Shown here: positions 37,204 to 45,245 of the stretch, piece by piece
Layout of the letters: the number at the start of each line of letters is the position of its first letter
Position numbering within the stretch: the stretch's first letter is position 1
Origin: Gemmatimonadota bacterium
GTDB taxonomy: Bacteria; Gemmatimonadota; Gemmatimonadetes; Palauibacterales; KS3-K002
Length of the DNA stretch: 64,000 bases
Assembly (NCBI GenBank): GCA_039586795.1
Contig: JBDHJS010000015.1
Span: forward strand, 64,001 to 128,000
Reading direction: 5' to 3'
Translations under genes and position numbers: made by a program
The notes under the pieces: model-generated
The model's input: the letters and a program-made list of their open reading frames with translations, nothing else
What the model was told of the DNA's origin: nothing
Databases searched by the model: none

Positions 37204-39051
37204 TTGTTTGGCTTGATAAGGAACATTGCCATCATCGCCCACGTCGATCATGGGAAGACGACGTTGGTCGACAAGATGCTGCGGCAGGCCGGCGTTTTTC
37301 GTTCTAATCAGCAGGTTGAGGAGCGAGTTCTTGACTCTAATCCTCTGGAGCGGGAGCGCGGCATAACGATACTGTCGAAGAACACCGCCGTGCGCTGGGG
37401 TGATGTGAAAGTGAACGTGGTTGATACGCCCGGGCACGCCGACTTCGGCGGCGAAGTGGAGCGCATTCTGAGGATGGTGGATGGAGTGCTGCTGTTGGTG
37501 GATGCCGCCGAAGGCCCCATGCCCCAGACTCGGTTTGTGACCCGAAAAGCCCTGGAATTGGGCGTTCAGCCCATTGTGGTCATCAACAAGGTAGACCGCC
37601 ATGACGCGCGGCCGCTGGAGGTTCATGACGCCGTGCTCGATCTGTTCATCGAGCTCGATGCGACCGACGCGCAGCTTGATGCTCTCTTTCTTTATGCGTC
37701 AGCTCGGGACGGCTGGGCTAGCTCGTCGGAGGAACAGTTCGGCGGGGACCTCAGACCGCTATTTGATGCGATCGTCGAGCACGTTCCGACGCCCGCCTGT
37801 ACGGTAGATGGACCGTTTCAGATGCTGGTGTCGACTATTGACTACTCGCCGTATCTGGGCCGAGTAGCGATCGGTCGAATCGAGCGCGGGGTAGCCGAGG
37901 TGGGCCAGCAAGTGGTGATGTTGTCACCGGGCGAGGCCGGGCTCGCAAGCGAATCGGAAGCTGAAGCCGGGCGGATCGTGAAGTTGTATGGATTCGAAGG
38001 CCTGAAACGAATCGAGATGAGCTCGGCGGAGGCGGGAGACATCGTAGCGATCGCCGGTGTGGATGGTATCGAGATTGGGATGACGCTGACGGACCCGGGT
38101 TCGCTGGAACGCTTGCAGGGAATCGCCGTGGAAGAGCCGACGATATCCGTCGATTTCATGGTGAACAACTCACCTTTTTCTGGGGAGTCGGGCCGGTTCG
38201 TTACCAGTCGCCAGGTGGGCGAGCGGCTGTTCCGTGAGGTGGAGAGCAACGTGGCGCTGAAGGTGGAGGAGACAGCCACGCCGGAAGTGCTTTCCGTGTC
38301 GGGCCGCGGCGAACTGCACCTGGCCATCCTGATGGAAACCATGCGCCGCGAAGGGTACGAATTCCAGGTGAGTCGGCCGCGAGTCATCCTGCGTGAAAAC
38401 GGGGACGGCAGGAAGAGCGAGCCATACGAGGAACTTGTGGTGGATGTCCCGGAGAGTATGACGGGCGCTGTGATGAAGAAGCTCGGCCCTCGGCGTGCGG
38501 AGTTGATCGAGATTCGAGCTCCAGGGCAGGGGCGGGCGCGAATGCACTTCAAGATCCCGGCGCGTGGACTCTTCGGGTATCGTTCTGAGTTTCTGACCGA
38601 TACGCGAGGGGAAGGCATCATGCATCACCGTTTCCTCGAGTACGGACCTTGGGCAGGCCCGCTGGAGGGCAGGCTACGCGGGGTACTCGTGGCAGATCGC
38701 GAGGGCACTACGTCGCCATACGCGCTATTCAACCTTCAGGAGCGAGCGACCATGTTCGTCGGTCCGCGAGAGCGAGCCTACCAGGGGATGATCGTGGGTG
38801 AGAACTCCAGGGTTGGTGACATGGAAGTGAACGTGTCGAAAGAGAAGAAGCTGACGAACATTAGAGCCGCCGCGTCAGATGATAATGTCTTGCTCGAACC
38901 CCCGCGGCGGATCTCTCTGGAGGCTGCGCTGGAGTATATCGAGGAAGATGAACTGATCGAGATAACACCCGACGCGATTCGACTGCGCAAGCGTGTGCTG
39001 GACTCCAACGAACGCAAGAAAGCTGCCCGCCATTCAAACAAACCCTCCTAA
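37204..39051 (+). CDS. typA: Translational GTPase TypA/BipA
   Basis: [52 protein letters not shown] and KKLTN.RA. Confidence 0.97.
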
Positions 39052-39064
39052 CGGAACGTCAACT

Positions 39065-40204
39065 GTGAGTACAATAGAGCCACTTGGCATACTTGAACTA
39101 AAGGACCGATATTCCGGCTTCATTCGTTGTCGCGAAGCCAGCTATCTGCCCTCCGACTGCGATGTACACGTTGGCCGAAAGATGGTCGACAAATACGATC
39201 TGCGGACGGGCGACGAGATCGCTGGTGAAGTCGGCAAGTCCCCCGGGCGGGGAAAGAGTCCTCCATTGCAGAAGGTCACCGCGATTAACGGCCGTCCGCC
39301 GGAGTCTCTCGATCGACGGCCGCAGTTCAGTCGACTCGGGGCTGTGCACCCAGACGAGCAACTGATCATCGATTGCGGTCGCCAGATGCTCGGAGCTCCC
39401 GACTACACCAATCGCGTCATCGATCTGCTTTGCCCGTTTGGGAAGGGACAGCGGGCGATGATCGTCTCGCCGGCAAAAGCGGGAAAGACGACAGTGCTCC
39501 AGGCCGTGGCGGAAGGTGTCGTGTCGAACTATCCGGACGCGACACTTCTGATCTTACTGGTGGATGAACGGCCGGAGGAAGTCACCGAGATGGAAATGTG
39601 TGGGTTTGGCGAGGTGGTATCATCGAGCTTCGACTTCCCAGCTGACCGACACGTGGCGCTGGCCGAGCTGACGTTGGAAAGGGCTCGGCGCCGCGTCGAG
39701 ATGGGGGAGGACGTCGTCATCATCCTGGATTCGATCACGCGGCTTGCTCGTGCCTACAACACCACGGAGCCGGGTACAGGGCGAACGCTGTCAGGCGGTC
39801 TCGACGCATCGACGCTGGACAAACCAAAACGATTCCTCGGTAGCGCTCGTAAGATCGATCCGGCGAAGGGTGGTGGATCATTGACAATCATATCCACCGC
39901 GCTGGTCGATACCGGCTCGCGGATGGACGATGTGATCTTCGAGGAGTTCAAGGGAACTGGCAACAGTGAGCTTGTCCTCAGTCGCGAACTCGCGGATCGG
40001 CGCATTTTCCCGGCCATCGATCTCACGGCCAGCGGCACGCGGCGCGAGGAGTTGCTGCTGTCGCCCGATGCTCTTGCTGTCTCGCAGGCTATTCGAAATC
40101 GCTTGGCTGATGCTTCACCCGTCGATGCGATGACTGAGTTGCTTGCGGTGATGAAGAAGACGGAGTCGAACGAAGAGCTTGTGAGGCAGGCCAGCGGGAG
40201 TTAA
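39065..40204 (+). CDS. rho: Transcription termination factor Rho (short, lacking the N-terminal helical domain)
   Basis: OB-fold LRTGD, G.GQR...SPAKAGKT, DERPEEVT, LDSITRLARAYN, FEEFKGTGN and SGTRREE. Confidence 0.9.
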   Translation: MSTIEPLGILELKDRYSGFIRCREASYLPSDCDVHVGRKMVDKYDLRTGDEIAGEVGKSPGRGKSPPLQKVTAINGRPPESLDRRPQFSRLGAVHPDEQLIIDCGRQMLGAPDYTNRVIDLLCPFGKGQRAMIVSPAKAGKTTVLQAVAEGVVSNYPDATLLILLVDERPEEVTEMEMCGFGEVVSSSFDFPADRHVALAELTLERARRRVEMGEDVVIILDSITRLARAYNTTEPGTGRTLSGGLDASTLDKPKRFLGSARKIDPAKGGGSLTIISTALVDTGSRMDDVIFEEFKGTGNSELVLSRELADRRIFPAIDLTASGTRREELLLSPDALAVSQAIRNRLADASPVDAMTELLAVMKKTESNEELVRQASGS

Positions 40205-43268: not shown

Positions 43269-43802
43269 TCAGTCGTTCAATACGCGTAAGTACTGGCGCC
43301 AGGGTCCCACCTCAGAACCACAGCTTTTCGCCATCACACGAGCGATCTGAGCGATGTGGCCAAGATCGTGGACGACCCACGTGGCGAGCAGTTGGGCCGC
43401 TGTGACTACTCCGAGCTCGGGGTGAACGCCTGTCAACTCGAGCTGAGACTCTGTCAAACCCAAGTCTTCCAGAACACGCAAGTTCTCGGCGCGCAGTCGT
43501 TCGAACTCGTCAAGCAGGTCCGGCAGGGCCTTTCCGGCGCTCTTCTCGAACTGGGCAAACCGATCGAACGGCTCGAACCGTTGTGCTTCTCCGTGCTCGA
43601 GGATGTTGCGGAGGCGTGGAATCCAGTCGGTTTCTTCGCCGTGGATGAGGTGGCCAACGATATCGTAGGCACTCCAGGTGCCCTCACCCTCCGTCACGGT
43701 TACCCACGGCTCAGAAAGTTGGGCGAGCAGAGCTCGAAGCGTTCCCGGTGTCGACCGCAGGATCTCGACAGCATGGTCGGTATCGAATTCCATCGGACTC
43801 AC
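43269..43802 (-). CDS. DinB family protein
   Basis: WS..DIVGHLIHGE..DWIPR, HPELG.VT and WVVHDLGH motifs. Confidence 0.88.
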   Translation of the reverse strand: MSPMEFDTDHAVEILRSTPGTLRALLAQLSEPWVTVTEGEGTWSAYDIVGHLIHGEETDWIPRLRNILEHGEAQRFEPFDRFAQFEKSAGKALPDLLDEFERLRAENLRVLEDLGLTESQLELTGVHPELGVVTAAQLLATWVVHDLGHIAQIARVMAKSCGSEVGPWRQYLRVLND

Positions 43803-44419
43803 TCCTGTTCGACTGGATCTTTGGGTGAAGCGACGGCAGCCGGCGATGGTGCGGCGTCCCCGGCTCGCCTACGCAACCAGGCGACTATGATGAGAACCGT
43901 GAAGGCCAGCGATGTTACAGCCACGGCAATCAGCGGATGTCGTTCGTACAACCGCGCGAGTCCTTCTCCCGATAGAACGAAGAGAACGGTACCCGGAAGA
44001 ATTCCGATGGCTGTGGTCCAGAGGAATGTGCGGCGATTGCAGGAAGTGAGGCCGAGCCCCCAGTTGAGTGCGGTGAACGCAATAGCGGGTATGAGGCGGG
44101 CGATGAGGAGGCCCGGCCAGCTCGCTGCGTTAACGACCCCGTCGATCTTGTCTATCGCGGCGTCGGGAACGAATCGACAGACGAGCGGCCTCCCAAAGGC
44201 ACGCGCCAGCTCGAAGCTCAGTTGCGCGCCGATCACGGCACCGGTCCAGGTGATGAGTATGCCGGCGATCGGGCCGAATAGCATGCCGTTCATCGCGGCG
44301 GGTATCTCAGCTGGAATGGGAAAGACAGCGACGCCGGCCATCAGCGCTACGGCAAGCGGATATCCCCACCCGCCGAGGCCGTGCACCCAATAGCCAATCG
44401 ACTGGATCAGCTCGTTCAT
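43799..44419 (-). CDS. TVP38/TMEM64 (VTT/DedA) membrane protein
   Basis: PIPAE, G.LFG...G, ARLIP...F..LN..GLT and TAIGILP motifs. Confidence 0.88.
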   Translation of the reverse strand: MNELIQSIGYWVHGLGGWGYPLAVALMAGVAVFPIPAEIPAAMNGMLFGPIAGILITWTGAVIGAQLSFELARAFGRPLVCRFVPDAAIDKIDGVVNAASWPGLLIARLIPAIAFTALNWGLGLTSCNRRTFLWTTAIGILPGTVLFVLSGEGLARLYERHPLIAVAVTSLAFTVLIIVAWLRRRAGDAAPSPAAVASPKDPVEQE

Positions 44420-44480
44420 GCGGTCTCCACGGTGCCTGAGGTCCTCTTAGAGTAACCTTTACGTCGCCGTCCGCCATTAT

Positions 44481-44807
44481 GTGTCAGAGCTTGGTGGAGC
44501 GAGACCGGGAGCGGAGCGGCAACCTTTGGTGCCTGAGTGGCGTCTAACAGGATGATTGAGGGTAGAATGAAACCCCTCGGTCTGTAGAGACGTAAGGGAT
44601 CTTAAGGGCAGTCCAATACGTTTTTGTAGTAGAGTCGAACAGACGGAGATCCGAAAGGAGCTTTGTACATAACAGTAGGGCCATGAGCGCCGCAGCTTAG
44701 CATGGGCGCTCGATCCTCCACGCCCAGCCGACACTGGGCACTCCTACCTACGGAGTCCTACCTTACTCCGCAATTGGGAAAAGGCCGGCGAAGCCGGCCT
44801 TTTTTTT
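44481..44807 (+). ncRNA. Candidate novel large structured ncRNA (about 330 nt including terminator)
   Basis: No credible CDS; 5' end pairs with the 3' part; two long arms, one capped by GAAA; G-U pairs polarised to the + strand; own U8 terminator. Confidence 0.6.
44779..44807 (+). terminator. Intrinsic terminator, possibly bidirectional
   Basis: AAAA-GGCCGGC-GAA-GCCGGCC-TTTTTTTT. Confidence 0.9.
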
Positions 44808-44825
44808 AATCGGAAGTATCGTGAG

Positions 44826-45245
44826 CTACGTGGGGTCTCCGCGTTTGAACCGTTCCAGTTCGCGGCGTTCCTTCTTCGTGGGTCGGCCCTTGTCGCGAAA
44901 CGAATATGTAGGTGCGGCCTTTCGGTGGGCCCGCAGCCGTTCACGATTCTCCAGGCTCTCCGGGGTCTCTTCGTAGAGCTCGGCCGCCTCTCTGGCAGAG
45001 CGCCGCTTCTCCGACAGCCTGACGACGACCAGCTGAAACTCGATGGGGCCCTTGCGAATCCGGACGCGGTCGCCGGTATGGAGTACGGAGGATCGCTTGG
45101 CGCGGTGGCCGTTGACCTGAACCTTGCCGCCCACCACGGCTTTGGCGGCGAGGGAGCGCGTCTTGAAGAAGCGAGCTGCCCAAAGCCACTTGTCGAGGCG
45201 AACCTTGTCGGTTCCGAACTTGCGGTCAGGGGTTGTCTCCACCAT
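44826..45245 (-). CDS. hslR: Ribosome-associated heat shock protein Hsp15 (S4 domain)
   Basis: VRLDKWLWAARFFKTRSLA, A.ELYEET.ES and GRPTKKERR motifs. Confidence 0.92.
   Translation of the reverse strand: MVETTPDRKFGTDKVRLDKWLWAARFFKTRSLAAKAVVGGKVQVNGHRAKRSSVLHTGDRVRIRKGPIEFQLVVVRLSEKRRSAREAAELYEETPESLENRERLRAHRKAAPTYSFRDKGRPTKKERRELERFKRGDPT

Follow-up and report, generated by a model that had tools for sequence, protein, structure and literature searches.

What does the gap between two minus-strand genes, dedA and hslR, encode in a Gemmatimonadota genome, when a strong plus-strand terminator closes the gap and no plus-strand protein gene stands before it? The gap lies in a window of 64,000 nucleotides (the whole stretch of DNA that was analysed) from a genome of 4.68 Mb that is 98% complete. 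A preliminary description had proposed a stand-alone, Y-shaped structured RNA of about 330 nt, without a recognisable family and possibly akin to the 6S or Ms1 RNAs. The setting that it gave is right: gene calls and domain matches place the gap between the minus-strand dedA/VTT gene and the minus-strand hslR, the stretch is richer in A and T than its surroundings (GC 52-57% vs 59-66% in the flanks), and the plus-strand terminator with its U8 tract is present in the sequence and in the predicted fold. In our analysis, the gap holds a lineage-specific non-coding RNA candidate that is smaller and less exotic than first proposed and is absent from Rfam 15, and we regard promoters followed by a shorter non-coding RNA as very probable. 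The neighbours and the end of the element are as follows.

43799-44419, minus strand: dedA/VTT-domain gene (PF09335 match), divergent neighbour of the RNA element
44779-44807, plus strand: intrinsic terminator, with its hairpin at 44783-44799 and U8 at 44800-44807
44826-45242, minus strand: hslR, encoding an Hsp15-like S4 protein (S4 domain), convergent neighbour of the RNA element

The best NCBIfam match of the hslR product is Hsp15, with a score below the cut-off of that family. A simple terminator scan did not have the terminator at 44783-44807 among its output. Elsewhere in the window, typA is followed by a Rho-like gene (together 37204-40204, plus strand) whose product has about 400 amino acids; this Rho-like gene (38993-40204), 4 kb from the RNA element, is probably a second or short Rho.

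The element indeed belongs to no recognised family. The cmscan search against Rfam gave eight matches at the locus, all far below the gathering score, and the best of them in Rfam 15 (sroD, 22 bits) covers the terminator only. At the locus, none reached the gathering score for tmRNA, RNase P, SRP, T-box, riboswitches, raiA, CsrB or RsaE, and in eight homolog loci no Rfam family fell on the element; likenesses to the raiA, SAM-I or cobalamin motifs were dropped, because cmscan gave no such match. tmRNA and an RNase P motif are present elsewhere in the genome. No Gemmatimonadota sRNA family was found in Rfam 15 or in the main-text literature searched, and supplementary motif catalogues could list the element. 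It should be mentioned that in two genomes (G010 and G002, loci L031 and L017) the space from the terminator to hslR contains an inserted palindrome of ~100 nt; it is probably a repeat element, and such palindromes are probably behind the miRNA-family noise in the Rfam scan of the homolog loci.

The sequence words from which the Y shape had been assembled are all found where they were reported, and the fold itself is not supported. Of seven helices tested, five reach a pair probability of at most 0.02, forcing them costs 16 kcal/mol (-110 vs -126), and the part from 44481 to 44734 is no better structured than shuffled sequences (z -1.66; 15/200 as good). The whole stretch 44481-44807 reaches z -3.26 because of its 3' core and terminator, the last ~100 nt, which fold far better than shuffles (z -5.5; 0/200 as good). 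When 21 homologs were aligned, the proposed helix GAUUGAGGG/CCCUCGGUC had only 1-14 rows paired per column and CGUCU/AGACG 6-19, whereas GCCCAG/CUGGGC, which had been overlooked, is kept in 20-21 of the 21; in this test, some of the proposed helices could not be aligned, and the two outer helices of the rod lie beyond the alignment and were judged by folding alone. A further hairpin, GGAG/CUCC, was rejected, as it is not family-wide.

What, then, are the conserved words in the 5' part? GUGUC, the outermost strand of the proposed rod, is the -35 box of a dedA-facing motif on the other strand, and CGUCU is the -10 box of the plus-strand motif P1. In other words, spaced promoter boxes can mimic conserved RNA helices, which is a trap for anyone who scans DNA for them. 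Three motif pairs of this type were recognised.

44460-44486, minus strand: Pd, TGACAC-N17-CGTA, ECF-type promoter motif pointing at dedA, 40 nt before the dedA start
44519-44547, plus strand: P1, GCAAC-N17-CGTC(TAA), ECF-type promoter motif with a predicted start at ~44551
44568-44594, plus strand: P2, (T)GAAAC-N17-CGTA, ECF-type promoter motif with a predicted start at ~44601

The hallmark of ECF sigma factors is described as AAC at -35 and CGT at -10 (PMC8103513), and the spacers of ECF promoters as 16-18 bp (PMC7776599); at the motif level, the element has these boxes at this distance. When spacers of 15-19 were allowed, 17 was found in 12/12 cases for the three motif pairs together, including 4/4 for Pd. 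P1 (GCAAC/CRTC) is present in all 21 loci with upstream DNA and P2 (GAAAC/CGTA) in 18 of these 21, and an extra plus-strand pair (GGAAC/CGTT) occurs in 10 of the 21; Pd is present in exact form at 11 of the 27 hslR loci and persists, with one letter changed, at locus L021, where the RNA unit is gone. The -35 boxes are 90-100% conserved (100% for the P1 columns) and the spacers 56-61% (61% for P1). The fixed 17-nt spacers, conserved boxes and variable spacer letters fit the form of ECF promoters, and the conserved 5' motif pairs are likely to be active promoters of ECF or stress sigma factors. The genome has 22 matches to sigma region 2. Assigning P1 to a SigW-like gene was rejected, since just one of the 29 loci has the full P1 motif upstream of it. 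In a sample of 301 genomes of the class, the P1+P2 tandem occurs at 18 places, 7 of them in front of an ORF; at two loci of another family of the class (L117 and L119), it is followed by another non-coding unit, ~100 nt long, whose hairpin and terminator the two loci share.

Genome-wide counts differ between the two plus-strand motifs. The peak of P1 is weak (9 vs 0-6 intergenic sites) and disappears in the total DNA. GAAAC-N17-CGTA has 52 intergenic sites in this genome, compared with 0-13 at other spacers, and the profile is flat inside genes; the spacing peak recurs in the related genome G012 (26 vs 4-16). Among the 52 intergenic sites, 42 face the next called gene, and 12 of these precede the gene of an ADOP permease (seven) or a PadR gene (five), which suggests an envelope regulon; 41 ADOP permeases over the cut-off were counted in the genome. 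GAAAC-N17-CGTA probably marks an ECF regulon with a minimum of 52 sites, in which ADOP permeases, PadR genes and small membrane proteins are frequent. Several of the sites classified as opposite to the next gene precede small ORFs that are absent from the gene calls. Near C68:50963 and C8:7565, both on the minus strand, an ECF-type motif is followed by a terminator after ~270-300 nt that contain no clear ORF, and these two places are further sRNA candidates.

The 5' 120 nt of the proposed 330-nt RNA contain promoter-type motif pairs, and the predicted RNA is shorter. With starts taken 7 nt after the -10 boxes, the predicted transcripts measure ~257 nt from P1 and ~207 nt from P2 (150-281 and 124-230 nt, respectively, among the homologs), and their parts are the following.

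44601-44711, plus strand: variable purine-rich 5' part, ~20-130 nt after P2 among homologs
44643-44666, plus strand: hairpin, probable in the fold of this genome
44685-44711, plus strand: hairpin H0, found in 4/22 loci and visible in L084
44712-44721, plus strand: motif A (UCCUCC), C-rich and anti-Shine-Dalgarno-like, with U and C columns invariant in 22/22
44722-44739, plus strand: core hairpin GCCCAG-CCGACA-CUGGGC, 8 pairs, 94.9% of cells paired
44740-44776, plus strand: C-rich, G-poor stretch with motifs B (UCCUACC), C (UCCUACC) and D (CUCCGCAA), the likely seed region

Conservation at the RNA level is seen in 44712-44807, a core of ~100 nt. The core hairpin has a pair probability of 0.98 and both-side changes at three pairs, and its loop letters are invariant among the homologs; the whole consensus structure, which comprises just two local hairpins, beats 500/500 shuffles on pairing and covariation (a test uncorrected for kinship). 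CCYACC and D are nearly invariant, with indels of all frames between them, and the unpaired core columns contain 42% C and 8% G. The mean unpaired probability is 0.72 for B, 0.63 for C and 0.54 for D, and motif A, at 0.39, is often paired; in the fold of this genome, B and D are mostly paired as well (unpaired probability 0.23 and 0.29). There is no conserved ORF, and a reading of the element as a small ORF was rejected, because no start or frame is shared across the homologs. The conservation of unpaired motifs together with frame-breaking indels indicates function at the RNA level. Four of eight RNA-seq runs were compared with the locus; their contigs, at a depth of 2-3, lay on dedA or hslR and none covered 44324-44898, which speaks neither for nor against transcription.

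A DNA search of 61 genomes returned eight matches: the window itself, three true syntenic copies, and four chance matches of 26-33 bases. Of the 31 genomes of the family, 25 have hslR matches, at 27 places in all, and the element faces the 3' end of hslR at 22 of these places, in 21 genomes, so that the proposed link with hslR is conserved. The five places without the element are a contig break (G021, in which the element was found on the other side of the break), a contig end inside the element (G014), an intron-like insertion (G011), the clean loss of the unit (G019) and an hslR fragment of 69 bases. At locus L021, P1, P2, the core and the terminator are jointly absent, and dedA, its motif and hslR are retained. 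Directly after hslR at L033 (G011), the end of a reading frame and an intron-like stretch, which we take to resemble domains V-VI of a group II intron, stand in place of the terminator of the RNA. A shortened version at L088 (G006) has P1 and the terminator, with ~90 nt between them in which motifs C and D are kept and the core hairpin is missing; this genome has no hslR match.

With a covariance model of the element, scores of 65-118 bits were reached at 23 places, in 22 genomes of the family, and 22 of these 23 were training sequences of the model. Outside the family, in 114 genomes of a sister family and a 151-genome sample of the phylum, all scores were below 30 bits, so that, within the genomes searched, the element is restricted to one family; nine inspected out-of-family matches (three from the sister family and six from the phylum sample) had no promoters of the P1/P2 type. 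With the query used, hslR was not found in five genomes outside the family. Among metagenome contigs, the one match was identical in sequence to a known homolog, and viral contigs gave none. A search for the core pattern among 185,579 species found 13 matching records, all Gemmatimonadota; one of them is Ca. Kutchimonas denitrificans, of a genus placed in the Palauibacterales (PMC10469786). The preliminary description is upheld in one part, a likely stand-alone, terminated plus-strand non-coding RNA gene outside Rfam, whose link with hslR is conserved; the proposed length of 330 nt, the Y shape, most of the helices and the 6S/Ms1 reading are not supported.

How might such an RNA act? On balance, we lean towards an ECF-induced, chaperone-free, trans-acting sRNA of ~200-260 nt that would repress translation by pairing with ribosome-binding sites; if the promoters and the shorter RNA are granted, base-pairing repression as the mechanism is rather probable. 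The stacked promoters would fire under envelope-type stress, the plus-strand RNA would end at its intrinsic terminator, and its C-rich stretches would pair with the G-rich ribosome-binding sites of mRNAs and block translation without a known RNA chaperone. In short, we infer active promoters, RNA production, the type of stress and the pairing with mRNAs. Hfq and ProQ were not found in any of the 31 family genomes, and CsrA (PF02599) and KhpA/B have no match in this genome. The element has the anatomy of RsaE-type RNAs, FoxI is an ECF-driven case without Hfq, and none of these chaperones was found; we therefore favour a role as the repressor arm of an envelope regulon under ECF control.

RsaE and other Rsa RNAs are described as placing unpaired UCCC motifs on Shine-Dalgarno sequences and blocking ribosome binding without Hfq (PMC2790875). 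Like the C-rich-box sRNAs of Staphylococcus and Bacillus (RsaE/RoxS and the Rsa group), the element has several conserved C-rich motifs, of which B and C are mostly unpaired in the predicted folds and A mostly is not, with a hairpin and its own intrinsic terminator and no conserved ORF; unlike them, it has no Rfam match, UCCUCC/CCYACC instead of UCCC, and ECF-type promoters. FoxI of Fusobacterium nucleatum, with which FoxJ may be grouped (PMC11005410), is reported to depend on sigmaE, as the element is predicted to depend on an ECF sigma factor, and to repress membrane-protein mRNAs in a bacterium without Hfq by pairing across their Shine-Dalgarno sequences (PMC9546586), a property that is only predicted for the element. 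The element belongs to another phylum, has up to three stacked promoter types and resides in a genome without KhpA/B; it is likened to FoxI and FoxJ by description, not by sequence.

MicL is a sigmaE-dependent "repressor arm" sRNA of Proteobacteria. MicA and RybB, also of Proteobacteria and dependent on sigmaE, are, like the element, non-coding members of an ECF regulon, and RybB is cited as using a 5' seed (PMC9546586). These three RNAs need Hfq, whereas the host of the element has no Hfq and the conserved part lies at the 3' end.

The two-genome prediction of targets was negative. It compared 1097 ortholog pairs between this genome (G000) and G012, with 2.4 of the 4.09 Mb of G012 included, and had low power. 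One gene ranked in the top 5% of both genomes for motif A, one for motif B and three for motif C, compared with 1-6 such genes for shuffled motifs, and real and shuffled motifs were about equally good at pairing with start regions. The top-ranked gene for motif C, presumably DivIVA-like, was not significant. A clustering of predicted duplexes at -10 to 0 in the single genome is not counted, as it is circular: start codons had been chosen with a Shine-Dalgarno bonus. Pairing with the mRNA of a sister small protein was rejected on inspection, because the arms do not co-vary, and so was an RNA mimic of the ECF promoter, because the complementary words are in the wrong order. Pairing with Shine-Dalgarno sequences leaves the invariant loop letters and CUCCGCAA unexplained.

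These results also bear on the main alternative, in which the same promoters would produce an RNA that serves as a protein decoy, its C-rich, G-poor single strand binding Rho, S1 or a cold-shock protein. Rho prefers pyrimidine-rich, rut-like (C-rich) single strands, and the composition of the unpaired core, the conserved letters of the hairpin loop, the Rho-like gene 4 kb away, the lack of a conserved mRNA target in the two-genome search and the missing chaperones (Hfq and ProQ in the family; CsrA and KhpA/B in this genome) would all suit such a decoy. A rut site, however, is composition-based and requires no exact motifs, and the exact conservation of motifs seen here is more than it needs; nor does this genome have a CsrA match or the conserved core an array of GGA loops. 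We consider a decoy unlikely as the main function. A decoy of the CsrB/RsmZ type is not supported, with no PF02599 match in this genome and a C-rich conserved core.

The constant position beside hslR raises a second alternative, a cis-acting unit that would be antisense to hslR read-through towards dedA or dinB, or would supply insulator or processing hairpins on the minus-strand mRNA. The element is convergent with hslR at every strong locus, including both copies in G026 and that of G021 across the contig break; a crude count (at least 5 U in 8) finds a U-tract on the plus strand in 20 of 22 loci and on the minus strand in only 3, so hslR transcripts may cross the element. An antisense role, however, would not require sequence conservation, which the core shows and its flanks lack; the neighbour opposite hslR varies (dedA adjoins only 9 of the 27 hslR loci), and the shortened copy in G006 sits in a genome without an hslR match. 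A cis-acting role is thus quite improbable.

The original proposal of a long, ornate 6S/Ms1-like RNA starting at 44481, perhaps with a pseudoknot between GUGUC and the hairpin loop, is highly improbable. In its favour, the loop letters GRCAC could pair with GUGUC, in most homologs with a single wobble, and RF00013 has no match at the locus or anywhere in the genome. GTGTC, however, keeps a fixed distance of 17 nt from TACG, persists at L021 without the RNA and is absent or altered at several loci that have the RNA; its helix has a pair probability of 0.01, it lies upstream of P1, and no sigma70-type site was found in 44000-45200. 6S RNA is described as a rod of stem, central bulge and stem of ~160-200 nt (PMC9788540, PMC11077062) that typically sits after zapA (PMC9788540). 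With 6S RNA and Ms1 the element would share a length of 200-300 nt, a stand-alone position between genes and a terminator; unlike them, it has two local hairpins in place of a conserved rod with a central bubble (the rod helices have probabilities of at most 0.02), and its length varies about twofold, with 124-230 nt after the inner promoter P2. zapA lies on contig C23 and is followed by a different, rod-like element of ~230 nt before rny (locus L178:1825-2058, plus strand), which is conserved in all five family genomes aligned and not in the one sister-family genome. Behind a sigma70-like motif, its predicted fold is a rod with a closing stem and central bubble, followed by a terminator; this is the better candidate and likely a 6S RNA overlooked by Rfam.

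Equally improbable is that the core is the remnant of a decayed or dual-function, ECF-driven small-protein gene with little or no RNA function: in its favour, 25 of 36 aligned positions agree between the core and the last codons of a second P1-driven locus. At the focal loci, however, there are stops and indels of every frame and the start is not shared, yet the compensatory pairs and motifs persist across ~9 genera, which is not expected of a decaying pseudogene, and this reading is already largely refuted. The second locus (C106, L305:1602-1772, minus strand) is a small ORF of ~40-57 amino acids with a conserved C-terminal end and no Pfam match to its peptide; P1 stands upstream in 10/10 loci read, the DNA matches in 14 of the 31 genomes, and the covariance model gives it only 19-24 bits, in two genomes only. 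From the alignment of the two, shared descent of the RNA core and this small-ORF locus is plausible. A fuller scenario, in which an sRNA was born from a duplicated ECF-driven small-protein gene, pooled up to three ECF sigma factors, works with none of the four known chaperones and possibly serves as a C-rich decoy of Rho or another pyrimidine-binding factor, is speculative and decidedly unlikely as a whole.

If the favoured reading of an ECF-induced, base-pairing sRNA is true, the non-coding arm of ECF stress regulons would extend to another phylum, in hosts in which neither Hfq nor ProQ (in the family) nor CsrA or KhpA/B (in this genome) was found. It would also provide defined candidate promoters and seeds, together with an ECF promoter motif for this lineage, and the second P1-driven locus would point to the possible origin of an sRNA from a small-protein gene.
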